Origin: a virus
Taxonomy: Duplodnaviria > Heunggongvirae > Uroviricota > Caudoviricetes
DNA: 16,117 nucleotides
IMG/VR virus record: IMGVR_UViG_2740892235_000017
Coordinates: 1-16,117 of that record
Direction: 5' to 3' (one strand)
Both the position numbers and the translations under genes were made by a program. A model generated the notes under the pieces. The model was not told where the DNA came from. It did no database searches and saw only the letters and a list, made by a program, of their open reading frames with translations. The stretch's first letter is position 1, and the number at the start of each line of letters is the position of its first letter. This document shows positions 4,153 to 16,117 of this stretch, in pieces.

Positions 4153-4173
4153 CACATAGTGTAACACTATGTG
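4153..4173. promoter_or_regulatory. Perfect 21-bp palindrome (candidate operator) upstream of the HigB-2-like/HTH pair
   Basis: CACATAGTGT-A-ACACTATGTG is a perfect 10-bp inverted repeat about a central A, directly followed by TATATAAAAT and the SD GAGGCAGG before the ATG at 4197. Confidence 0.5.
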
Positions 4174-4196
4174 TTATATAAAATGCAGAGGCAGGT

Positions 4197-4569
4197 ATGC
4201 GAATTTTCAAAATCGCCTGGTTTGAACGTTTCGCCCGAAAACATCGGATTTCCGATAAATCGCTGCGCAAAATCGTGGAGCAGGCCGATAAGGGGGATCA
4301 TATCCGCAAATTTGGGTAGTGGTGTCATTAAACAAAGATTAGCCCGAAGTGGTGGCGGAAAATCAGGCGGTTACCGGACAATAATTTTTTACCGCGTTGC
4401 AGAAAAAGCCTTTTTCATCTACGCATACGCAAAGAATGAACGAGAGAATATCACTGCTATAGAGGAAAATGCTTTTCGAAAAGCCGCTCCCCATGTCCTC
4501 AATCTTACTGATGAACAGCTGGCACAATTGATTCAACAAGGCCAGTTCACGGAGGTACCCAATGAGTAA
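4197..4569 (+). pseudogene. HigB-2-like (RelE/ParE superfamily) toxin, interrupted by a +1 frameshift in a G-run
   Basis: Frame A from ATG 4197 (good SD) reads MRIFKIAWFERFARKHRISDKSLRKIVEQADKGDHIRKFG then TAG at 4317..4319. Frame B continues ...GSGVIKQRLARSGGGKSGGYRTIIFYRVAEKAFFIYAYAKNERENIT to 4569. Removing one G from GGG at 4314..4316 joins them in frame. The joined product resembles Vibrio HigB-2 as recalled (GKRGGSRIIYYF...YGKNE). Confidence 0.5.
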
Positions 4570-4879
4570 AAATTACCGCAGTGATGCACTTGCATCTGTA
4601 CATGAAATGATGGAGTCACTCCATGATATCGGTGCAATCACAAAACAAACTATGCGCGAATTCGATGAAACTTGTCTTCAGCCTGCGCCGGTAATGTCTC
4701 CAGAAAGGATCCGTGCACTGCGAGAACGAGAGCATCTGTCTCAACCTGTTTTTGCCAGATACCTCAACGTCAGTAAAAACCTGATATCAGACTGGGAACG
4801 AGGAGTGAAACGCCCGGGAGGTGCAGCTCTTCGGCTTCTTTCAGTTGTCGAGAAAAACGGGATCCAGGTAATATCCTGA
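4562..4879 (+). CDS. HigA-like antitoxin / XRE-type HTH regulator (105 aa)
   Basis: ATG at 4562 preceded by GGAGGT; overlaps the toxin stop by 8 nt. C-terminal HTH-like segment LSQPVFARYLNVSKNLISDWERGVKRPGGAALRLL. Toxin-first gene order is typical of higBA. Confidence 0.6.
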   Translation: MSKNYRSDALASVHEMMESLHDIGAITKQTMREFDETCLQPAPVMSPERIRALREREHLSQPVFARYLNVSKNLISDWERGVKRPGGAALRLLSVVEKNGIQVIS

Positions 4880-4981: not shown

Positions 4982-5137
4982 TTACTCCTCAGGTTCGTAA
5001 GCTGTGAAGACAGCGACCTCCGTCTGGCCGGTTCGGATTCGTACCTCGCAGAGGTCTTTCCTCGTTACCAGTGCCGTCATTATGACGGTTAAACAGATGA
5101 CAATCAGGGCGATTAACATCGCCTTTTGCTGCTTCAT
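4982..5137 (-). CDS. hokD: Hok/Gef-family type I toxin (HokD/RelF-like, 51 aa)
   Basis: MKQQKAMLIALIVICLTVIMTALVTRKDLCEVRIRTGQTEVAVFTAYEPEE closely matches recalled E. coli HokD (RelF). SD GGAGAAG lies upstream of the ATG at 5135..5137. The ORF-track 70-aa form is an in-frame upstream extension. Confidence 0.85.
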   Translation of the reverse strand: MKQQKAMLIALIVICLTVIMTALVTRKDLCEVRIRTGQTEVAVFTAYEPEE

Positions 5138-5400
5138 AGCCTGCTTCTCCTTGCCTTTCGGCACGTAAGAGGCTAACCTACATGTGCAAAGCATGAAATT
5201 GGCCTCAGATTAATGTTAAGCGTCCTGCAAGACGCGTAATGTTAACTGGGGCTTTTCTCTGTCTGCCTTACGGCGGCATGCCCGAGGCAGACAGCCTCAA
5301 GCACCCGCAGCAATTCTACTTAACTCTTCTTTCCCCGCAAATCATTTTATCCCCGATGGTAATGTTCTCCCGATATGGGAATTCCCATATCAAGGTTAAC
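5138..5400 (-). promoter_or_regulatory. hok leader region (mok/sok-type regulation expected); candidate antisense Sok RNA on the plus strand
   Basis: About 260 nt of untranslated leader upstream of hok, containing an inverted repeat TCTGTCTGCC...GGCAGACAG (about 5257..5292). Hok loci are known to carry a structured leader and an antisense RNA; exact ends cannot be set here. Confidence 0.35.
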
Positions 5401-5960: not shown

Positions 5961-6121
5961 GATAACGCCCTCTGGTTGATGAATTTAACTATCACCACCT
6001 TCAGGTCTCAATCATCAGGTGGCGAGACGTACAGGGTTGAGACTACCGGATCAACCAACCGGCCAGCCTTTCGGCTGCCCCATACGCCTCACCATAATTC
6101 AGATGTGCGTGCGCATACGAC

Positions 6122-6145
6122 AATAAAAAACACGCTCGCGGCGTG
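6122..6145 (-). terminator. Rho-independent terminator on minus strand
   Basis: Minus-strand hairpin CACGC-cgcga-GCGTG (plus 6131..6145) followed by TTTTTT (plus A-run 6125..6130). Confidence 0.45.
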
Positions 6146-6301
6146 TGTCTGTCGCGGTTGAATATCCGGGGTCTCAATCCCGACGGTCAACTCGACCGTG
6201 CGGTGAATATAGCCCCGGATTAGTAATTACGTCAACCCCAGCGGCAAATCGAATAAACCACCAGCGCTACCGCCATTGCAACTCCTGCCGTTACGAATGC
6301 C

Positions 6302-6565: not shown

Positions 6566-7290
6566 TGTTCTCTGGTGGCGGTAATATCCCGGAGAATATC
6601 CCGGCACTTGTTCAGCTCCCGCAGCGCGGCGCAGACTCGCTCCCACTTCTGAACCTGACCTTTTGCCCGGCGCAGCTCGCGGTTAGCCACATGCAGCGAT
6701 GGTAAAATCAGCCCATCCGGATGCTTTCTGGTGAACGACGGCTGTGACTGCACTGTGACCGCCACACTTTCCGTTTTTATTTCTTCCTGTGTTTCCGCTT
6801 CCCGGACTGGTAACGCAACACATGCTGGCTGAGGAAAGGCTTTACCATCGGTTTCCGCTACGGATGCAGCTTCCGGCTCTGCCGGTAAATCAGCGCCCGG
6901 TATGCAGTAACGAAATTTACCGCCCTGATTCACGCGAATCAGACGCCCTTTGCTGATTGCCATGGCCAGCGATGAATTCGCCCGGCGGGAGGTAATCCCG
7001 AACATCAGTGCCAGCTCATCCGCCGTTTGTGGGCCATGTTGTTCAATCGCCTCAGTCAGCATTTGCGCTGTCACTTTCGGTACCGGTGACACTGGTTCAC
7101 TTTCACCTGCCTGAGTCAGCCACCACATCGACCCCTTGTTATCCGCTTCACCACGGCGCTTCAGTTTCCACAGTTCGTTGACCGCATCTTCACGGCTGAT
7201 TCCAAGGCGGGCCGCCACTACCTGTGAAGAGGCTCTTTTCAGTGCTTTCAGTGCGTCAAATACGGTTTCCATTAAAATTTCCTCCGACAA
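6556..7290 (-). CDS. Hypothetical phage early protein (244 aa) with N-terminal winged-helix-like segment
   Basis: Long ORF immediately downstream of the P-like gene with coding-like composition. Family not confidently recognised (possibly DUF1627-like). Confidence 0.45.
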
Positions 7291-7305
7291 AATCGTTTCC
7301 CAGAT

Positions 7306-7968
7306 TCAAATAAAACCAGCTGCCTTCCGGCGTTCGTATTCCTGTTTCAGCCGTTCAATTGGCGTTGGGCCTTGAGGGTGTTTCGCCCCTTCCAGTTGTC
7401 GTCGCACTGGCGGAACACTCATCCCGTTACCAACATGCTTTGCCCATTTCGTCAGTTGCCGTTCCGCAAGTCGTTTTAACTCACCCTGCGTCATCTGGCG
7501 CTCAATCCCTCTGGTACGCATTTCGAGGCAGATGTGGTACAGCACAGGCTGTGGCCACGGGTATTTATCACTCCCGTCGTATCGCCAGGATTCATTGCGC
7601 CAGCGCCGGTACTCTTCCATCACGGCATCCACCGTAAGACCAAATGGATTTGCCCCACTCTCCGAAATCAGCGCAACAAACTCAGCCAGGTCCGGGGGCC
7701 ACGTTTCACCCGCCCGGCAGCGGTCCATGCACTGACGGCAGACCAGACGGATTTGCTGTTCAGTCATCGCACCAATCTGGGCAATCCAGAGCTTCGAAGG
7801 TGCGGCCCCGTTCTTCTGAGTCCAGCGGTTCGAATACACCTCCCCCATAAGCTCCCACAGCTTCCAGGCCGTTTCCGTTGCTGATAAATCCGTTGTCACG
7901 TTCCCACTGTTCGCGTGCTGCCCGGATTTCCTGAACTGCCCGTGATGCCGTGCCACCTGATGCTGCAT
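7306..7968 (-). CDS. Replication protein P-like (helicase loader); start uncertain
   Basis: C-terminal half (GLTVDAVMEEYRRWRNESWRYDGSDKYPWPQPVLYHICLEMRTRG...ELKRLAERQ) aligns with recalled lambda P (GLPNVSELVDMVYEYCRKRGLYPDAESYPWKSNAHYWLVTNLYQNMRA...ELRRKAADE). The ORF as drawn overlaps the O-like gene by 209 nt. Confidence 0.65.
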   Translation of the reverse strand: MQHQVARHHGQFRKSGQHANSGNVTTDLSATETAWKLWELMGEVYSNRWTQKNGAAPSKLWIAQIGAMTEQQIRLVCRQCMDRCRAGETWPPDLAEFVALISESGANPFGLTVDAVMEEYRRWRNESWRYDGSDKYPWPQPVLYHICLEMRTRGIERQMTQGELKRLAERQLTKWAKHVGNGMSVPPVRRQLEGAKHPQGPTPIERLKQEYERRKAAGFI

Positions 7969-8797
7969 GGCTTCCCCCCTTGCTGACTGGTTTTACCTGT
8001 GCCCTGACGTGCTGCACGTGGCGGGCAAATTTCTGCTCCCACTGAACCTGCGTGAAAACCTTCCCCTCCGCCATCCAGTAATCCCGGAATGCGGCAAGCT
8101 CTGCAGGTGTAAATTCCGGCTCAGGCAGAGCCATACCCCACACTGCTGCCCGTTGTCGAAAATCCGGCGACGGCTGCCAGACAGTAGTCATCGAAAATTT
8201 CCCGATCGGTTCGCTCAGGCCGTCCAGGTATTCAGGTTCGGCTGTCTGCAACGGCGCACCATTCGACTCACTGGTCGGAATACTCTCGCGCGCGTTATGT
8301 GTAGGGTTTAATTCTGTATCTGTATCTTTATCTGTCGTGACTTGTCGTGACAGATGCGTGACACGTCGTGACTCATCGTGACAATCAGCATTATGTTTCC
8401 GCAGCTTTTCCCGCTCCCGCTGCGCTCTCTTGCGCTCTGCCGGGGATTTTGCCGTTTGCGAAACGTTACCATTGTCCTCTTTCAGCACCTGACGTTTTTC
8501 CCATCCGGAAATAAGGTCACCATCCAGAACCCGCCCCTGCATTGCATGCAAAATTGAATCAATTACGTCTTCCGTCACATCAAGCGCACTTGCTAAATCT
8601 TCCGTCGTGACATCAATGTGACCACGTAGTGACACGCCGTGACATGTCGTGACATTTCGTGACGCGCTCACCAGAAGGTGTATATACACTGCCATCACTG
8701 TTGCGATTGGCTGTCCTGATACCCTGGCAATCGTTCGCCACTTGGGGTCATTTGGCATGTCATGCCACAATCTGAGCCAGGCATTAGCCATACTCAC
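7760..8797 (-). CDS. Replication initiator O-like protein (N-terminal wHTH, DnaT-like C-terminal region)
   Basis: 345-aa ORF upstream of the P-like gene. N-terminal WLRLWHDMPNDPKWRTIARVSGQ is typical of phage replisome-organizer N-domains as recalled. Contains two internal arrays of direct repeats (iterons). Confidence 0.65.
   Translation of the reverse strand: MSMANAWLRLWHDMPNDPKWRTIARVSGQPIATVMAVYIHLLVSASRNVTTCHGVSLRGHIDVTTEDLASALDVTEDVIDSILHAMQGRVLDGDLISGWEKRQVLKEDNGNVSQTAKSPAERKRAQREREKLRKHNADCHDESRRVTHLSRQVTTDKDTDTELNPTHNARESIPTSESNGAPLQTAEPEYLDGLSEPIGKFSMTTVWQPSPDFRQRAAVWGMALPEPEFTPAELAAFRDYWMAEGKVFTQVQWEQKFARHVQHVRAQVKPVSKGGSHAASGGTASRAVQEIRAAREQWERDNGFISNGNGLEAVGAYGGGVFEPLDSEERGRTFEALDCPDWCDD
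8335..8382. repeat. Iteron array 1: five TCGTGAC/GCGTGAC direct repeats at 10-11 bp spacing, inside the O-like gene
   Basis: Heptamers at 8335, 8345, 8356, 8366, 8376. An AT-rich stretch lies immediately 5' (about 8296..8334). Confidence 0.6.
8605..8663. repeat. Iteron array 2: six GTGAC-containing direct repeats at 10-11 bp spacing, inside the O-like gene
   Basis: Repeats at 8605, 8617, 8629, 8637, 8647, 8657 (TCGTGAC, TGTGAC, AGTGAC, CCGTGAC, TCGTGAC, TCGTGAC). Confidence 0.6.
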
Positions 8798-8859
8798 CTC
8801 TTCTGATACCGAACTTTACCCACGAACTTCCGGAAGAAATCCGGTATAAATATTGTTGG

Positions 8860-9285
8860 TCAATGCACAACAACAGCATTACCAGGCTGACCACCACTGT
8901 TAGTCAGGGTGCCCCAGGCGATCGCTACAGCGACAAAATCATCCACATCTTTCACCAGCCGATCCCGTCGTTCGACGATCTCCCGGTAATATTCAGAACT
9001 GTGACTGCGCATACGGGCCACCAGCAAAGGCGGCATCGCCTTTTCGATCGCCGGTAACAGCGCCTGAATTTTTTCAACAGCATCAGACGTGTCCTTCTCC
9101 ACCCAGCGGAAAATTTTCTGGGTATTACGGGCCAGGGCTTCCGGATGGCTGTCGTCATACAGTTCCGGGAACGTCATCCCCAGCTCGAAATAAGTCCGGG
9201 CTATTTCAGCTGCGGGAACTTTCTCACCATCAGGATATGCCCAGGCATTCATCGCCATACGGATGTGTTCATGCTTGATTTTCAT
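8860..9285 (-). CDS. YdaT-like protein (CII-position gene of Rac-type immunity regions)
   Basis: 141-aa ORF immediately downstream of the Cro-like gene, beginning MKIKHEHI, which matches my recollection of Rac YdaT. Assignment by position and partial recall. Confidence 0.45.
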   Translation of the reverse strand: MKIKHEHIRMAMNAWAYPDGEKVPAAEIARTYFELGMTFPELYDDSHPEALARNTQKIFRWVEKDTSDAVEKIQALLPAIEKAMPPLLVARMRSHSSEYYREIVERRDRLVKDVDDFVAVAIAWGTLTNSGGQPGNAVVVH

Positions 9286-9544
9286 GAATCACCCCCGTCT
9301 CTGGTTGTGTGTTAGCCTGACACTCGACAGGTAAGCCGTCGGTTGGGTTGGGATAAGAACTGCGATCAATCTCGTGCGGAGTTACTATCCAGCCAGTTGC
9401 TTCACACCAACGTAAAATTTTTTCCCCCGTAAGTTTCGCCCGCCCGGTAATGACATGGCTTACCATCCCCTGGGTTACCCCAACAATTTCAGCAAAATGT
9501 TTCTGAGTTATACCGGAATAACGCAAATATTCTCCAAGATTCAT
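9269..9544 (-). CDS. Cro-like / YdaS-like HTH regulator (91 aa)
   Basis: N-terminal HTH-like segment (ITQKHFAEIVGVTQGMVSHVITG). Divergent from the repressor gene. SD GAGGTG upstream of the ATG at 9542..9544. Confidence 0.6.
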   Translation of the reverse strand: MNLGEYLRYSGITQKHFAEIVGVTQGMVSHVITGRAKLTGEKILRWCEATGWIVTPHEIDRSSYPNPTDGLPVECQANTQPETGVIHENQA

Positions 9545-9574
9545 TGTTCACCTCATGTGATGTCATCACGATCA

Positions 9575-9603
9575 TTAATAGCATTGTTATTTTTAAAAGT
9601 AAA
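9575..9603 (-). promoter_or_regulatory. Candidate leftward promoter for the cro-like operon (pR analogue)
   Basis: Minus strand: -35 TTTACT (plus 9598..9603), 17-nt spacer, -10 TATTAA (plus 9575..9580). Overlaps operator candidates A and B. Confidence 0.3.
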
Positions 9604-9616
9604 TAGCGCCACTATT
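9577..9616. promoter_or_regulatory. Operator pair (OR-like): two 15-bp sites of form AATAGC-N3-GCTATT, centres 25 bp apart
   Basis: Site A 9577..9591 AATAGCattGTTATT; site B 9602..9616 AATAGCgccACTATT. Each has one mismatch to a perfect inverted repeat. Located in the cro-like/repressor intergenic region. Confidence 0.55.
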
Positions 9617-9644
9617 TCAAAGAGATTAATAATCTTATTAGAAT
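9616..9644 (+). promoter_or_regulatory. Candidate rightward promoter for the repressor operon (pRM analogue)
   Basis: -35 TTCAAA (9616..9621), 17-nt spacer, -10 TAGAAT (9639..9644). Predicted start would be close to the ATG at 9652 (near-leaderless, as for lambda cI from pRM). Confidence 0.3.
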
Positions 9645-9651
9645 TGAAGGT

Positions 9652-10152
9652 ATGAAAAGAAAATCCCTGTCAGAGATCGACCTGCAAGCCGCCCAGAGAC
9701 TAAAAGAAATCTGGACGGCGAAAAAAAATCAACTAGGGTTAACCCAAGAGCGTGCGGCAGAAATTCTGGGATTTTCGACACAGGGAGCTGTAAGCCATTA
9801 TCTAAATGGTCAGACACCTTTAAATCTTGAGGCTGTTATCAAGTTCGCAGGGTTACTGCAAGTTCCTCCCGAGTCAATCAGACCAGATATGGCCGAGTTG
9901 TTACAAATTGTAAGGATGTATCCCCAAGAATCTGGGGAGGACAATGTTGTCACTATATCTGCCGATATGGAACAATCGGAAAACGAACTTCCGTTTAATA
10001 TAGACCCCATGGAGCGGGATTTGCTCCAGACGTTCAGGGCTTTCCCCAAAGAAGATAAAGAGAAAATGCTTAAGGAAATGAAGGAGAAAAAAGAATCAAT
10101 TGAAGAAATCGTTGCGCGATGGCTAGCTGCGCAAAAAAGTCGTCGCGCCTAA
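9652..10152 (+). CDS. CI-like prophage repressor (XRE-family HTH, no S24 peptidase domain); PaaR-like first gene of a three-gene repressor-antitoxin-toxin operon
   Basis: 166-aa ORF with N-terminal HTH (LGLTQERAAEILGFSTQGAVSHYLNG) and a charged helical C-terminus. Divergent from the cro-like gene. Followed 17 nt later by the antitoxin gene. Confidence 0.65.
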   Translation: MKRKSLSEIDLQAAQRLKEIWTAKKNQLGLTQERAAEILGFSTQGAVSHYLNGQTPLNLEAVIKFAGLLQVPPESIRPDMAELLQIVRMYPQESGEDNVVTISADMEQSENELPFNIDPMERDLLQTFRAFPKEDKEKMLKEMKEKKESIEEIVARWLAAQKSRRA

Positions 10153-10169
10153 TCTGAGGAGGTCAAAAC

Positions 10170-10361
10170 ATGAGTACAGCCCTTTCCCCGATAATTTCTG
10201 AATTTGAAACGGTCGAACAAGAAAACAGCTATAACGAATGGTTGCGAGCCAAAGTGGCAGCAAGCCTCGCAGATCCCCGTTCTGGAATTCCGCATGATGA
10301 AGTAATGGCTGAAATGGAAAACCTTATTGCTCAATTAGCTACAACGAACAGGAGTGAGTAA
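10170..10361 (+). CDS. Small antitoxin of a ParE-family toxin (PaaA-like, 63 aa)
   Basis: Strong SD GAGGAGG before the ATG at 10170. Its stop overlaps the toxin ATG by 1 nt. Size and context match the PaaA2 antitoxin of paaR-paaA-parE modules as recalled. Confidence 0.55.
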   Translation: MSTALSPIISEFETVEQENSYNEWLRAKVAASLADPRSGIPHDEVMAEMENLIAQLATTNRSE

Positions 10362-10651
10362 TGCTGCCCATTTTATGGCTACCTTCTGCACGTGATGATT
10401 TACGTCAGATAGTAGCCTATATTGCTAAAGAAAACCCTCCCGCTGCACGTAGACTAAAAATACGCATTGAAACATCAGTTTTGTCACTTACTGAACACCC
10501 TTATCTGTACCCACCGAGCGAAAGAGTTCCAAGTCTTCGAGAGATAGTGACTCATCCTAACTACATAATACTTTACCGAGTAACAACATCTAACATCGAG
10601 ATCGTAAATGTAGTTCACTCACGAAGGCAGTATCCAAACAAAAGCTGTTAA
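10361..10651 (+). CDS. parE: ParE/RelE-superfamily toxin (96 aa)
   Basis: ParE-like features: N-terminal LPSARDDLRQIVAYIAKENPPAARRL and C-terminal IEIVNVVHSRRQYP. Translationally coupled to the upstream antitoxin. Confidence 0.6.
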   Translation: MLPILWLPSARDDLRQIVAYIAKENPPAARRLKIRIETSVLSLTEHPYLYPPSERVPSLREIVTHPNYIILYRVTTSNIEIVNVVHSRRQYPNKSC

Positions 10652-10662
10652 TCATTTCTGTC

Positions 10663-10688
10663 AAAAACCACCTTCGGGTGGTTTTTTT
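10663..10688 (+). terminator. Rho-independent terminator after the repressor-TA operon
   Basis: AACCACC-ttcg-GGTGGTT hairpin followed by TTTTTTT (10682..10688). Confidence 0.7.
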
Positions 10689-10699
10689 CTTGCCGTGAT

Positions 10700-10739
10700 A
10701 ATAGCGTTGCTATTTACATAATTAAATAGCAGTGGTATT
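10700..10739. promoter_or_regulatory. Operator pair (OL-like): two 15-bp sites AATAGC-N3-GCTATT, centres 25 bp apart
   Basis: Site C 10700..10714 AATAGCgttGCTATT (perfect); site D 10725..10739 AATAGCagtGGTATT (one mismatch). Same motif and same 25-bp spacing as the OR-like pair. Confidence 0.55.
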
Positions 10740-10741
10740 GT
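10713..10741 (+). promoter_or_regulatory. Candidate pL-like promoter for the early-left operon
   Basis: -35 TTTACA (10713..10718), 17-nt spacer, -10 TATTGT (10736..10741). Overlapped by operator sites C and D. Confidence 0.35.
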
Positions 10742-10919
10742 TTATGCATCAACCCACCCCGTCCCACAGAATGCAGGGCAATACTTCGAGTTACCCGGCA
10801 GTGGCAAGGGGTTAAGTAGCCAGCCCGAGGCGTATGAACATGACGGCGGGAACACTTTGTATAACAGCGCAGCAGGTTTTTAGTTCCGCTACCCGGCGTT
10901 AAGGGTAAATGAGGTCAAC

Positions 10920-11072
10920 ATGGATACGCTCAATCTTGGCAACAACGAATCTCTGGTATGCGGTGTGTTCTCTAACCAGGACGGCACGTTTACCGCGATG
11001 ACGTATACCAAAAGTAAAAAGTTTAAAACCGAAGCTGGCGCGCGTCGCTGGTTAGCCAGAAACACTAACTGA
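10920..11072 (+). CDS. Small early-left protein (50 aa; YdfA-like)
   Basis: ATG at 10920 with SD GAGGT 5 nt upstream; TGA at 11070..11072. Below the ORF-track size cutoff. Occupies the position ydfA holds downstream of dicA in Qin. Confidence 0.4.
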   Translation: MDTLNLGNNESLVCGVFSNQDGTFTAMTYTKSKKFKTEAGARRWLARNTN

Positions 11073-11324
11073 TTAGTACCAGTAAAAACAGGTTGCCACT
11101 GGTTAATTTACCCTGAAAAGTCAGGGCATAACACGAAAGCGCACGGCGAAGTTCGTATATCTGTACGGCGTCGTTAAATTTTCTTCGACCGTGCACTTCC
11201 GGTTGTGGCAATCCGCGAAATGGCGCGGCGGTAAGTATGGCTGGGGTTTCCTCCATTGCTCCAGAAAATGCACCGGGTTGTCAGGTTGACCATACGCTTA
11301 AGTGACAGCCCCGCCACAATACCC

Positions 11325-11380
11325 ATGTGTAGTCTTTGGTGGCATCAGTTCTACTCCGTGACTGCTCTGCCACCCTTTTT
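11325..11380 (+). ncRNA. dicF: DicF-like small RNA with intrinsic terminator
   Basis: Segment ...GGTGGCATCAGTTCTACTCCGTGACTGCTCTGCCACCCTTTTT closely resembles recalled E. coli DicF. Terminator stem GGTGGCA/TGCCACC (11338..11344 and 11368..11374) plus T-run 11376..11380. Lies immediately upstream of dicB as in Qin. The 5' end is approximate. Confidence 0.5.
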
Positions 11381-11547
11381 AAAGTGAATTTTGTGATGCG
11401 GTGAATGCGGCTAAGCGCACGCGGAACAGTTAAAGCTAAAAACAGCGTTATGGGTGATTCTGTATTCCGGCGTTAATTGTTAACTGGTTAACGTCACCTG
11501 GAGGCACCAGGCACCACATCACAAAATTCATTGTTGAGGACGCGATA

Positions 11548-11736
11548 ATGGAAACGTCACTACCAAACGTTAATACGTCTGAAGGGTGTTTTAATATTGG
11601 TATTCTGCTCAGTAACCGGGAGTTTACTGAGGACGCCATCAGGATGAGAAAATATGAGCCTTATCTTCTCAATGATAATTCCATACTCTCCAGAATTGCC
11701 CTTCTTGAACTTGGCATTTTCGGAGGGCAGCAGTGA
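11548..11736 (+). CDS. dicB: Cell-division inhibitor DicB (62 aa)
   Basis: METSLPNVNTSEGCFNIGILLSNREFTEDAI... matches recalled DicB (M.TLLPNVNTSEGCFEIG...FTEDAI), same length. SD GAGGA upstream. Confidence 0.75.
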   Translation: METSLPNVNTSEGCFNIGILLSNREFTEDAIRMRKYEPYLLNDNSILSRIALLELGIFGGQQ

Positions 11737-11872
11737 GTTCAGCGTTTACACTGATGATGACGGTTTTTCTGATAACAGGTGAGCCACAGAAAGTGATTAC
11801 CGGAATTTATGCCAGTAAAGAATCCTGCCATCAGGCAAGAGACGAGCAAAAAATTTCCGGTGAATGTCTCCC
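11733..11872 (+). other. ydfD-like ORF copy truncated by the assembly gap (probable artefact copy)
   Basis: GTG start overlapping the dicB TGA (GTGA). Encodes MSSAFTLMMTVFLITGEPQKVITGIYASKESCHQARDEQKISGECL and then runs into the N-run at 11873. Confidence 0.4.
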
Positions 11873-11882
11873 NNNNNNNNNN
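11873..11882. other. Assembly gap (10 N)
   Basis: Run of 10 n characters. Confidence 1.
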
Positions 11883-11940
11883 ATCATTCCATACTCTCCA
11901 GAATTGCCCTTCTTGAACTTGGCATTTTCGGAGGGCAGCA

Positions 11941-12129
11941 GTGAGTTCAGCGTTTGCACTGATGATGACGGTTTTTCTTATAACAGGTGAGCCACAGAAT
12001 GTGATTACCGGAATTTATGCCAGTAAAGAATCCTGCCATCAGGCAAGAGACGAGCAAAAAATTTCCGGTGAATGTCTCCCGTTAAACAAAGTATCGCTGT
12101 ACCTGAATAACGAAATACCGGCTGGATAA
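11941..12129 (+). CDS. ydfD: YdfD-like small membrane protein (62 aa; Qin lysis protein homologue)
   Basis: MSSAFALMMTVFLITGEPQNVITGIYASKESCHQARDEQKISGECLPLNKVSLYLNNEIPAG has an N-terminal hydrophobic helix. Position directly after dicB and size match Qin YdfD as recalled. Confidence 0.55.
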   Translation: MSSAFALMMTVFLITGEPQNVITGIYASKESCHQARDEQKISGECLPLNKVSLYLNNEIPAG

Positions 12130-12224
12130 CCCGCCAGCCATATTAACGCCATACCAACGGATTAAAAATGCCAGCAATGGCAGGGATTCGTTCACCCTGA
12201 AATCTGTAATGAGGTTTAAACACA

Positions 12225-14696
12225 ATGAGTAAAATATTTATTTGCGCCGCCATTCCTGACGAACAGGCAATAAAAAACGAGGGCGCTGTTGCTGTGGCCA
12301 CAGCCATTGAAGCCGGTGATGAACGTCGCGCCCGCGCAAAATTTCACTGGCAATTCCTTGAACATTATCCGGCTGCTCAGGACTGCGCTTATAAATTTCT
12401 TGTCTGTGAGGATAAACCCGGTACACCCCGCCCAGCCCTCGACTCCTGGGATGCTGAATATATGCTGGAAAACCGCTGGGATGAGGCGTCTGCTTCCTTT
12501 GTCCCGGTCGAACCTGAATCAGATCCGATGAACGTCACTTTTGACAAGCTGGCCCCTGAAGTACAGAACGCTGTCATGGTTAAGTTCGATACATGTGAAA
12601 ACATCACCGTTGATATGGTGATTAGCGCACAGGAATTGTTGCAGGAAGACATGGCAACCTTCGACGGACATATCGTGGAAGCTTTGATGAAAATGCCAGA
12701 AGTTAACGCCATGTATCCGGAGCTTAAGCTGTATGCCATCGGGTGGGTTAAGCATAAATGTAAGCCTGGTGCCAAATGGCCAGAAATTCAGGCAGAGATG
12801 CGCACCTGGAAAAAACGTCGCGAAGCAGAACGAAAAGAAACCGGGAAACATACTTCTGTTGTTGAGCTGGCCCGCGCCAGAGTCAACCAACAGCACACTG
12901 AAAACTCAGCAGCAAAAATCAACCCTGTCACTACTGCCATTCGTCGCGAATACAAGCAGACATGGAAAACCCTGGATGAAGAGCTGGCTTACGCTCTCTG
13001 GCCTGGTGATATTGATGCCGGAAACATTGACGGTACCATCCATCGCTGGGCTAAAAATGAGGTTATCGACAAGGATCGCGAAGACTGGAAGCGTATCTCT
13101 GCATCAATGCGCAAACAGCCTGATGCGCTTCGCTATGACCGTCAGACTATTTTTGGCCTTGTTCGTGAGCGCCCGATCGACATTCACAAAGATCCCGTTG
13201 CACTGAACAAATACATCAGCGAATACCTGACGACAAAGGGCGTGTTTGAACATGAAGAAACAGACCAGAGCTCTGCTGATGCTATCCTGTCGTCAGCAGC
13301 ACAAACTGATCCAGTGGAGACGGCGGAATCCAATTCTCAAAAAAATGAAATCCTGGTGGAAGCTGAACCATCTGTAGAGCGTGAAGGACCGTTTTATTTC
13401 GTCTTTACCGATAAGGACGGGGAAAAATACGGCAGGGCAAACAAACTTTCTGGCCTGGACAAGGCGCTGGCTGCCGGTGGTACCGAAATCTCAAAAGAAG
13501 AATATTTTGCCCGAAAAAATGGCACATATACGGGCTTACAGCAAAATACAGATACCGCAGAAGATTCAGAACAACCAGAGCCGGTAAAAGTTACCGCTGA
13601 CGAAGTAAACAAAATTATGCAGGCAGCCAATATCAGCCAGCCTGACACCGATAAATTGCTTGCTGCATCACGTGGTGAATTTGTTGAAGGGATTAGCGAC
13701 CCGAATGATCCGAAATGGGTTAAGGGGATTGAAACCCGCGATTCTGTGAACCAGAACCAGCCCGAATCGGAACAAAACGACCAGAAAGCGGAACAAAACA
13801 GTCCAAATGCGTTACAAAACGAGCCAGAAACGAAACTGCCTGAACCAGAAGTGCAACAAGAACCGGAAAAAGTTTGCACCGCATGCGGTCAGACCGGTGG
13901 CGGCAACTGTCCTGACTGTGGTGCGGTGATGGGGAACGCAACCTACCAGGAAACATTCGATGAAGAGAATCAGGCTGAAGCTCAGGAAAATGATCCGGAG
14001 GAAATGGAAGGCACTGAACATCTGCACAAGGAGAACACTATCAGCGATCAGTATCACGCCAGCGATAATAAAACTGGCGAGACAGCAAATCCCTTAATTA
14101 AAGTGAACGGTCATCATGAAATCACATCCACCAGCAGGTTGTGGCACCATCTGATGATTGACCTTGAAACAATGGGAAAAAATCCTGATGCGCCAATAAA
14201 CGCTATAGCCGGTAAGTTTTTTGATCCGGCAACCGGAGAGATGGGGCCAGAATTCAGCAAAACTATCGATCTGGAAACCGCAGGCGGGGTCATCGATCGG
14301 GGCACCATTAAGTGGTGGCTGAAACAGTCACGCGAAGCACAATCCGCCATTCTGACCGATGAAATCCCGTTGGATGATGCACTGCTGCAATTCCGGGAAT
14401 TTATCGACGAAAACTCCGGTGAATTTTTTGTTCAGGTCTGGGGTAACAGTGCAACTTTCGACAACGTGATTTTACGCCGTTCATATGAACGGCAGGGGAT
14501 CCCCTGCCCGTGGCGTTACACCAATGATCGCGATGTAAGAACGATGGTTGCTCTGGGACTGGTGATGGATTTCGACGCAAGAACGACTATTCCATTCGAA
14601 GGTGAACGCCATAACGCGCTGCACGATGCGCGTTACCAGGCAAAATACGTTTCAGCCATCTGGCAAAAACTGATCCCGAGTCAGGCTGATTTTTAA
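12225..14696 (+). CDS. Large prophage protein (823 aa) with C-terminal DnaQ-like (DEDDh) 3'-5' exonuclease domain
   Basis: SD TGAGG upstream of ATG 12225. C-terminal region has Exo I-like MIDLETMG and Exo III-like HNALHDARYQAKY. An acidic low-complexity linker (about 13740..13860) and a CxxC-x7-CxxC motif (CTACGQTGGGNCPDCG, about 13876..13923) precede it. Confidence 0.65.
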   Translation: MSKIFICAAIPDEQAIKNEGAVAVATAIEAGDERRARAKFHWQFLEHYPAAQDCAYKFLVCEDKPGTPRPALDSWDAEYMLENRWDEASASFVPVEPESDPMNVTFDKLAPEVQNAVMVKFDTCENITVDMVISAQELLQEDMATFDGHIVEALMKMPEVNAMYPELKLYAIGWVKHKCKPGAKWPEIQAEMRTWKKRREAERKETGKHTSVVELARARVNQQHTENSAAKINPVTTAIRREYKQTWKTLDEELAYALWPGDIDAGNIDGTIHRWAKNEVIDKDREDWKRISASMRKQPDALRYDRQTIFGLVRERPIDIHKDPVALNKYISEYLTTKGVFEHEETDQSSADAILSSAAQTDPVETAESNSQKNEILVEAEPSVEREGPFYFVFTDKDGEKYGRANKLSGLDKALAAGGTEISKEEYFARKNGTYTGLQQNTDTAEDSEQPEPVKVTADEVNKIMQAANISQPDTDKLLAASRGEFVEGISDPNDPKWVKGIETRDSVNQNQPESEQNDQKAEQNSPNALQNEPETKLPEPEVQQEPEKVCTACGQTGGGNCPDCGAVMGNATYQETFDEENQAEAQENDPEEMEGTEHLHKENTISDQYHASDNKTGETANPLIKVNGHHEITSTSRLWHHLMIDLETMGKNPDAPINAIAGKFFDPATGEMGPEFSKTIDLETAGGVIDRGTIKWWLKQSREAQSAILTDEIPLDDALLQFREFIDENSGEFFVQVWGNSATFDNVILRRSYERQGIPCPWRYTNDRDVRTMVALGLVMDFDARTTIPFEGERHNALHDARYQAKYVSAIWQKLIPSQADF

Positions 14697-14760
14697 TGTT
14701 CAACCCCGGTCGTCGCCCGCAAGCTATAGTGGCGGCGACCATGATTAGCGAACAACTCTC

Positions 14761-15009
14761 ATGGCAAGACTTATTCTTCTCACTGAGTGGGCAAAAGAGG
14801 AATTCAGTGACCCGGTCCCGACTCCGGGCACGTTAAGTAAATACGCTAAAGCCGGAATGATATTTCCTCTCCCCAAAAAAGTTGGAAGACACTGGCGAGT
14901 GGATCCTCGAGCTCGCTTTGTCGGAATGGTAAACAAGCCGGAAGTGATCGCCACAGATCACCCTGCTTTGAAGAGGATACTGGAAGATGGCGCGCCCACG
15001 AAAATATAA
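14761..15009 (+). CDS. xis: Excisionase-like protein (Xis)
   Basis: 82-aa ORF directly upstream of int, overlapping it by 23 nt. Segment GMIFPLPKKVGRHWRV resembles the lambda Xis DNA-binding region (RIFPPPVKDGREY). Confidence 0.6.
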   Translation: MARLILLTEWAKEEFSDPVPTPGTLSKYAKAGMIFPLPKKVGRHWRVDPRARFVGMVNKPEVIATDHPALKRILEDGAPTKI

Positions 15010-16117
15010 AACTGAAGTTCCGGGATTATCTCCGTATTTTGACAAAAGAAATAACAAAGTTTACTGGCGTTACAGGCATCCCATAACAGGAAAAAATCAC
15101 GGGCTCGGCAGTATTGACCAGAAACAGGCAGAAGCTATTGCAGCAGAAGCGAACAGCCGTCTTGCCAGGCAACAAATGGAACAAATGCTCACTCTGCAGG
15201 AGAAAATTATTCGTGATACCGGTGGTTCATCAACCGTTTCTGTTTTTCTGAATAGTTACCGAAAAATTCAACAGGAAAGATATGAAAACGGAGAGATCAA
15301 ACTCAACACACTGAAACAGAAAGCATCCCCTCTCAGGGTATTTGATGAACGTTTTGGTACCAGACCTTTAGATGCCATAACCGTAAAAGATGTGGTATCG
15401 GTGCTGGAAGATTACAAGGCAAAAGGACATAACAGAATGGGACAAATTTTCAGGAAAGTACTGATTGATGTTTTCCGGGAGGCCCAGCAAACGGGCGATG
15501 TCCCGCCAGGCTTTAACCCTGCAGAATCGGCAAAAAAACCACAGGTACGGATATCACGGCAACGACTGACCTTTGATGAGTGGATGATGATTTATAATGC
15601 AGCGGAAAAGGATGGTTACTTTTTACAGCGTGGTATGCTGCTGGCACTGATGACAGGCCAGCGCCTTTCAGATATTTGCAAAATGAAATTTTCGGATATC
15701 AGGGATGGTTATCTTCATGTCGAACAGCAAAAAACAGGAACCCGGATTGCCATCCCTCTGGCTCTGCGTTGCGATAAATTAAATCTCACCCTGGATGATG
15801 TGGTGTCATCCTGTCGCGATTGCGTTCTTAGTCCGTGGCTATTGCACCACCATCATGCTAAAGGGACAGCTAAGCGCGGCGGGATGGTTAAGCCAGCAAC
15901 GTTAACCGTTGCATTTAAAAAAGCCCGGGATTCTGTGGATTACAACTGGCGTGCTAATGGCACCCCACCCTCTTTCCATGAGCAGAGATCTTTATCAGAA
16001 CGATTGTTCAGAGAACAGGGAATTGATACCAAAATTTTGCTGGGCCATTCGAATCAAAAAATGACCGATATTTACAACGACGCACGCGGTAAGGAATGGA
16101 AAAAACTGGTCATTTGA
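14987..16117 (+). CDS. int: Tyrosine-type site-specific integrase
   Basis: 376-aa ORF with typical phage integrase N-terminus (MARPRKYKT...YWRYRHPITGK) and a C-terminal catalytic region (...LLGHSNQKMTDIYNDARG) containing the presumed active-site Tyr. Ends at the window edge with its stop. Confidence 0.85.
   Translation: MARPRKYKTEVPGLSPYFDKRNNKVYWRYRHPITGKNHGLGSIDQKQAEAIAAEANSRLARQQMEQMLTLQEKIIRDTGGSSTVSVFLNSYRKIQQERYENGEIKLNTLKQKASPLRVFDERFGTRPLDAITVKDVVSVLEDYKAKGHNRMGQIFRKVLIDVFREAQQTGDVPPGFNPAESAKKPQVRISRQRLTFDEWMMIYNAAEKDGYFLQRGMLLALMTGQRLSDICKMKFSDIRDGYLHVEQQKTGTRIAIPLALRCDKLNLTLDDVVSSCRDCVLSPWLLHHHHAKGTAKRGGMVKPATLTVAFKKARDSVDYNWRANGTPPSFHEQRSLSERLFREQGIDTKILLGHSNQKMTDIYNDARGKEWKKLVI

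Follow-up and report, generated by a model that had tools for sequence, protein, structure and literature searches.

In Escherichia coli K-12, DicB blocks cell division via MinC, and protection from lambda is also ascribed to it. The small RNA DicF, typified as an Hfq-dependent RNA of about 53 nt that leads to filamentation, is cut from the polycistronic dicBF RNA. RNase E makes its 5' end (PMC9438474; PMC10448788), its 3' end is formed by a terminator or by RNase III, the RNase III product being 72 nt long (PMC9438474), and a 190-nt DicF precursor begins at an upstream RNase III site (PMC10448788). Among the K-12 targets, xylR is paired by the 5' end of DicF, and ftsZ, pykA and manX are paired by the 3'/loop region (PMC5069750; PMC5861419). 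The work on DicF so far has dealt with near-identical copies, with >99% identity (PMC5069750). The YdfD protein is a lysis protein that inhibits IspG, and its function is known only for K-12 (PMC8835842). Another K-12 sRNA, KilS (b4833), is located in the Rac prophage upstream of kilR (Bar et al., 2021, PMC8175672); DicF is not mentioned in the KilS paper (PMC8175672).

The locus described here is located in a viral DNA stretch of 16,117 nt (the window). One strand carries, in order, Q, RusA, DUF968, RelE/HTH, hok/sok, ORF6N, DUF1627, P-like, DnaT-like, YdaT and cro-like genes, and the opposite strand carries a cI-like gene, PaaA2-ParE, ydfA, DicF, dicB, ydfD, an 823-aa exonuclease gene, xis and int. 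The region is very probably the leftward early operon of a lambdoid prophage and the counterpart of the K-12 Qin dicBF operon. DicF, DicB and YdfD form an already known prophage module, and the DicF of the window is an uncharacterised allele of a known family. An earlier note on this DNA had described a DicF-like sRNA followed by DicB and a YdfD-like protein, and all three families were recovered above curated thresholds. Based on the alignment, the gene order ydfA-dicF-dicB-ydfD was the same as in K-12 Qin. The ydfB and ydfC genes, both of which lie between ydfA and the DicF upstream leader in K-12, were missing from the window. The first gene of the operon is ydfA-like (DUF1391, 50 aa; 10920-11072, + strand; PF07151, 99.6 bits) and aligned with K-12 ydfA.

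The closest complete genome was that of E. coli O113:H21 FWSEC0010 (99.4% identity over the 75% of the window covered), in which ompW adjoins the prophage. Several accessory elements were also observed in the window. A PaaA2-ParE toxin–antitoxin pair (10170-10651, +), followed by a strong terminator (10655-10686), is placed between the cI-like gene and ydfA; this insert was not found at the corresponding place in K-12 Qin or in the O113:H21 prophage. The window also encodes a RelE-like toxin together with its HTH partner (4171-4879, +), hok with the sok RNA (RF01794, 117 bits; 4982-5306, −), and, ahead of the ORF6N antirepressor-like gene, a C4 antisense RNA (69 bits) next to IsrK (51 bits), both at 6015-6199 (−).

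The DicF allele spans 11324-11380 (+). The Rfam DicF model, which the earlier note had proposed as a check, matched 11324-11375 over model positions 1-52 of 52 (RF00039, 61.1 bits against a gathering threshold of 48). The 5' single-stranded part (11324-11337, +) contains UGUGUAGUC. It is followed by a 7-bp outer stem with arms at 11338-11344 and 11368-11374 (+; GGTGGCA / TGCCACC), a 4-bp inner stem (11346-11349 with 11361-11364, +), whose loop bears ACUCCGUGACUG, and a UUUUU tail (11376-11380, +) read from the sequence. The outer stem had been given as GGTGGCA/TGCCACC in the earlier note, as found here, and the K-12 stem given there (GGCGG/CCGCC) agreed with that of MG1655 dicF (NC_000913.3, 1649382-1649434), which reads GGCGGTA / TGCCGCC. 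When the two hairpins were compared, pair 3 differed on both sides (C:G to U:A, T11340/A11372), pair 6 differed on one side (U.G to C:G, C11343), and one loop base was changed from U to C (11351). The proposal that paired substitutions preserve the hairpin was thus borne out for one two-sided pair (C:G to U:A), with an essentially unchanged predicted energy (−15.8 kcal/mol for the window and −15.9 kcal/mol for K-12; window z of −2.45 relative to shuffles, MFE).

To place these changes among related sequences, the stem was compared across 22 distinct DicF alleles, taken from IMG/VR prophage contigs and reference loci, in which 99.2% of the stem cells were standard pairs. Pair 18:50 was CG in 18 alleles, UA in three and C.A in one, and pair 21:47 was UG in 16 and CG in six; no two-sided change was found at any other stem pair among the 22 alleles. 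Since all of the U:A sequences belong to one allele lineage, the covariation represents one evolutionary event. It is real and fits selection on the hairpin, but it is slight and is weak evidence alone. Half-step stem variants were also observed on IMG/VR contigs, namely a K-12-type allele with C.A (L097) and a type-D allele with U.G (L144), and these may be intermediates, recombinants or sequencing errors. As described in the earlier note, the observation is of little importance: dicBF is a well-studied module, and compensated substitutions of this kind in a stem are textbook cases.

As judged from the alignment, the window allele departs from K-12 DicF more in its 5' single-stranded region, which has been replaced, than in its stem. 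The two alleles share their position between ydfA(BC) and dicB, the hairpin architecture, the U-tail and the loop segment ACUCCGUGACUG, and the processing leaders on both flanks are conserved in the window; the window stem carries the U:A and C:G changes, and its loop the change from U to C. In contrast, the 14 nt at the 5' end are unrelated (CAUGUGUAGUCUUU in the window and UUCUGGUGACGUUU in K-12). A 14-nt indel was found just upstream of the 5' part of the window DicF, and the sequence surrounding the K-12 RNase E 5' processing site was not conserved in the window alignment.

Target energies were predicted with duplexes restricted to the relevant segments, K-12 ftsZ being used in place of the host's own ftsZ. 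Full-length duplex prediction was dropped since it gave over-extended, unrealistic duplexes. With the loop segment, the predicted energies of the window and K-12 alleles were −18.7 and −18.4 kcal/mol for ftsZ, and −24.6 and −23.9 kcal/mol for pykA. With the 5' seed, which forms 13 bp with xylR in K-12, the predicted energy was only −6.6 kcal/mol for the window compared with −19.7 kcal/mol for K-12. The cofold energies for xylR (−5.0 kcal/mol for the window and −15.0 kcal/mol for K-12) agreed with the duplex prediction, and the full-length cofold with ftsZ was somewhat weaker for the window, within noise (−8.2 and −11.3 kcal/mol, respectively). These energy predictions are crude, and the cofold values are noisy apart from that for xylR; in the cofold control, shuffled sRNAs bound more strongly once their own hairpin was destroyed. 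The complementarity of the 5' seed to xylR was not found in the window allele, and it is a property of the K-12 allele and not of the Rfam family. Given that the loop segment ACUCCGUGACUG is conserved, the window allele most likely still blocks FtsZ synthesis. Based on these predictions, the window DicF would most likely retain the division-blocking function and lose the control of xylR.

An alternative is that the hairpin has been kept solely for intrinsic termination or attenuation in the early-left operon, so that the compensation preserves termination and the RNA has no trans-acting sRNA function. All alleles found at this position have in common just the stem base (GGCGG/CCGCC) and the U-tail, and the O113:H21 allele retains only a short terminator hairpin, as would be expected in that case. 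However, the 12-nt loop segment ACUCCGUGACUG is the same as in K-12, although termination needs no particular loop sequence, and it is this segment that pairs with ftsZ and pykA according to published mutational work. A role in termination only is therefore considered improbable, and a DicF that retains its loop-dependent targets is the preferred reading.

The sequences flanking DicF were structured on both sides. The upstream non-coding leader (11090-11323, +) aligned with the K-12, O113:H21 and O178:H19 prophages, folded with a predicted energy of −103 kcal/mol (z of −2.9), and is the counterpart of the K-12 region in which RNase III cuts to give the 190-nt DicF precursor. The leader between DicF and dicB (11376-11547, +) was identified from its fold and an inverted repeat. 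Its fold (computed for 11376-11560) had a predicted energy of −63.2 kcal/mol (z of −4.5), and its closing helix of about 20 bp is made by arms at 11385-11403 and 11512-11530 (19 nt, 95% complementary), ending just before the Shine-Dalgarno sequence of dicB. This leader is probably a candidate RNase III substrate that would give a longer DicF 3' end, and it may control the translation of dicB. Its membership in the STnc100 family (RF02076) was rejected (33.1 bits against a threshold of 47, E = 5e-5); the shape is related.

Upstream of ydfA, a candidate promoter that would serve the ydfA-dicF-dicB-ydfD operon as dicBp does in K-12 was located at 10695-10741 (+), where two sigma-70-like hexamer pairs, not above shuffle expectation, were found. 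It is overlapped by an operator-like perfect palindrome, TGCTATTTA-N6-TAAATAGCA (10708-10731). The divergent cro-like and cI-like genes are separated by a stretch that includes a copy of this palindrome with three mismatches (9585-9608), against a chance expectation of 0.01 matches there. The palindromes would be candidate operators of the prophage repressor, which fits a control like that of DicA at dicBp. For the expression, processing sites, targets and protein activities of the window cassette, we infer a scheme from the K-12 case. A promoter under repressor control, placed upstream of ydfA, would give a polycistronic RNA, the DicF hairpin and its U-tail would end part of the transcripts and form the 3' end of the sRNA, RNases would process the conserved structured leaders flanking DicF, and DicB and YdfD would be expressed from the read-through transcripts.

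The replaced 5' part was found to resemble that of KilS. The window allele has UGUGUAGUC and GGCAUCAGUU in common with KilS, and each RNA lies in the equivalent slot ahead of a gene for a division inhibitor, with the same UUUUUAAAGUGAAUUUUGUGAUG leader coming after it. The gene downstream of KilS is kilR and not dicB, and the KilS hairpin has a different loop without the ftsZ-pairing segment, whereas the hairpin body of the window allele is of the DicF type. On the DicF model, KilS scored 39.1 bits, below the cut-off of 48. Assignment of the window RNA to KilS was rejected, given that only the 5' segment UGUGUAGUC and the start of the stem are shared. The window allele looks like a KilS/DicF mosaic. 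Since its 5' part has been replaced by a sequence common to KilS, the set of 5'-dependent targets is probably different. No exact complement of the shared seed was detected in yncL, the RIL-seq partner of KilS, and the predicted sites were not the same.

A survey of the slot was performed in IMG/VR with the conserved downstream sequence AAAGTGNATTTTGTGATGNGGTGAATGCGG as the anchor. This gave 120 loci, including 46 new ones that were not among the listed DicF-core matches; most of the 46 hold other sRNA-like sequences at the DicF position, and about 18 are of the K-12 Rac KilS type, the commonest non-DicF type. The non-DicF slot alleles (L131-L176 and other IMG/VR loci, including KilS at 4406-4503 (−) of L296) scored 29-39 bits on the DicF model, against the cut-off of 48. 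In the O113:H21 prophage (NZ_CP031898.1), the slot at 12030-12090 of the locus, corresponding to 11321-11375 of the window, is occupied by TCTGTTATCACTTTTCTGGTGATTCGGCGGAAATGGATATCCGCCATTTTT, which consists of a K-12-like 5' part and a short unrelated terminator. No Rfam DicF match was obtained for this cassette at the gathering threshold. The O113:H21 prophage is almost identical to the window on both sides of the slot, and the boundaries of the swap are sharp. Many exchangeable sRNA alleles occupy the slot in lambdoid prophages. A further reading, which we put forward tentatively as possible but short of probable, is that the DicF position is a modular slot shuffled by recombination, in which the seeds UUCUGGUGA, UGUGUAGUC and AUGUUGAUUACC are combined with varied hairpin bodies between near-identical flanks.

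An assembly artefact was found inside the cassette. Ten consecutive N (11873-11882), interpreted as a scaffold gap, are followed by a redundant copy (11883-12080, +) of 11675-11872, a 198-nt direct repeat with 98% identity. The repeat comprises the final part of dicB and the initial two-thirds of ydfD, and the N run lies exactly at the repeat junction. In the 25 best complete-genome matches listed, the span was 786-808 bases for a 1001-base query, except for two records with 1675 bases, which carry an extra Rha family gene; no second dicB-ydfD copy was found in these 25 matches. When 11883-16117 of the window was compared with the O113:H21 prophage, the identity was 99.9% over 4235 bases, with four mismatches. 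All four lie no more than 118 nt to the right of the gap, the remaining 4.1 kb being identical, and the left repeat copy has the O113:H21 reference alleles at all four positions. With a single copy in complete genomes, the "second" dicB tail and ydfD are products of overlapping scaffold ends. Most likely, two overlapping contig ends were joined by the scaffolder, and the true locus has one ydfD with a GTG start at 11733.

The repeat (198 nt, or 208 nt as counted under this alternative) could instead be a real tandem duplication with a dicB tail and two ydfD genes, the N run masking real bases. The two copies differ at four positions, as diverged duplicates would, and some records of the collection do have masked stretches. 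Such a duplication is nevertheless very improbable: the copies meet precisely at the N run, a single copy is seen in each of the 25 best complete-genome matches listed, and the clustering of the four differences next to the gap is a pattern typical of a contig end. Because of the gap, it is the scaffolding alone that connects the DicF-dicB side with the ydfD-exonuclease-integrase side. The replication/immunity segment of the window (6956-11110) was not shared with the O113:H21 prophage, the flanks of which match at 99.7-99.9%, so the left and the right of the N gap have different closest relatives. This difference is ordinary lambdoid mosaicism. Left uncorrected, the scaffold artefact would mislead annotation: ydfD would be counted twice, and two residues of one YdfD would be doubtful.

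The dicB gene (11548-11736, +) encodes a division-inhibitor homologue of 62 amino acid residues, matched over residues 1-62 (PF05358, 115.7 bits against 27; NF049927, 102.2 bits against 100). The protein is 58% identical to K-12 DicB and is the same as WP_000450222.1, annotated by RefSeq as DicB in two complete genomes (L001 and L010, the latter being the O113:H21 prophage). The genuine 5' part of ydfD (11733-11872, +) begins with a GTG start overlapping the stop codon of dicB, and the ORF is interrupted by the assembly gap. Its translation equals the O113:H21 YdfD as far as the gap, and when the repeat was collapsed, a full protein of 62 amino acid residues was obtained. The earlier note had named a 62-aa YdfD-like ORF at 11941-12129 (+). 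Its family was confirmed (PF07358/DUF1482, 53.8 bits against 25), but the coordinates belong to the right-hand artefact copy, the real start being at 11733. This copy is 47% identical to K-12 YdfD and differs from the left copy by T6A and K20N, both of which are doubtful residues. Compared with Qin, where DicB and YdfD have 62 and 63 amino acid residues, both window proteins have 62; the order is the same, with overlapping stop and start. The tested K-12 proteins are only 58% and 47% identical to the window variants, the activities of which are putative.

The frequency of the alleles was determined in complete E. coli genomes. The K-12-type 72-mer was present in 3975 of 5426 genomes (73%). The window-type 69-mer was found, always on the chromosome, in 296 genomes, of which at least 159 of the 5426 matched with ≥99% identity. 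About 4-5% of complete E. coli genomes carry the window-type allele, and no annotated feature was present at the allele among the matches listed. In deposited phage genomes, no full window-type allele was found, the matches covering the hairpin part only. A scan of genome contigs with the DicF core gave only seven loci, as each species is represented by a single genome there. Matches of the 14-mer TTTGGTGGCATCAG in a viral-contig scan, mostly due to chance, were set aside. That the cassette is an inactive, decaying remnant is highly unlikely: K-12 Qin is itself defective and the window lacks ydfB and ydfC, but every ORF is intact, the neighbouring prophage genes are intact as well (including the integrase, excisionase, Q and replication genes), the compensation maintains the hairpin, and the presence of the identical allele in at least 159 complete genomes argues against decay.

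If the DicF position is indeed a modular slot, the window RNA would be a natural seed swap, with a KilS-type 5' seed on a DicF body, in which the control of ftsZ, pykA and manX is kept and the xylR seed is exchanged for one directed at another host target. As a minority allele with a different 5' seed, it would offer a natural test of how prophage sRNAs come to change their host targets while the division block stays.
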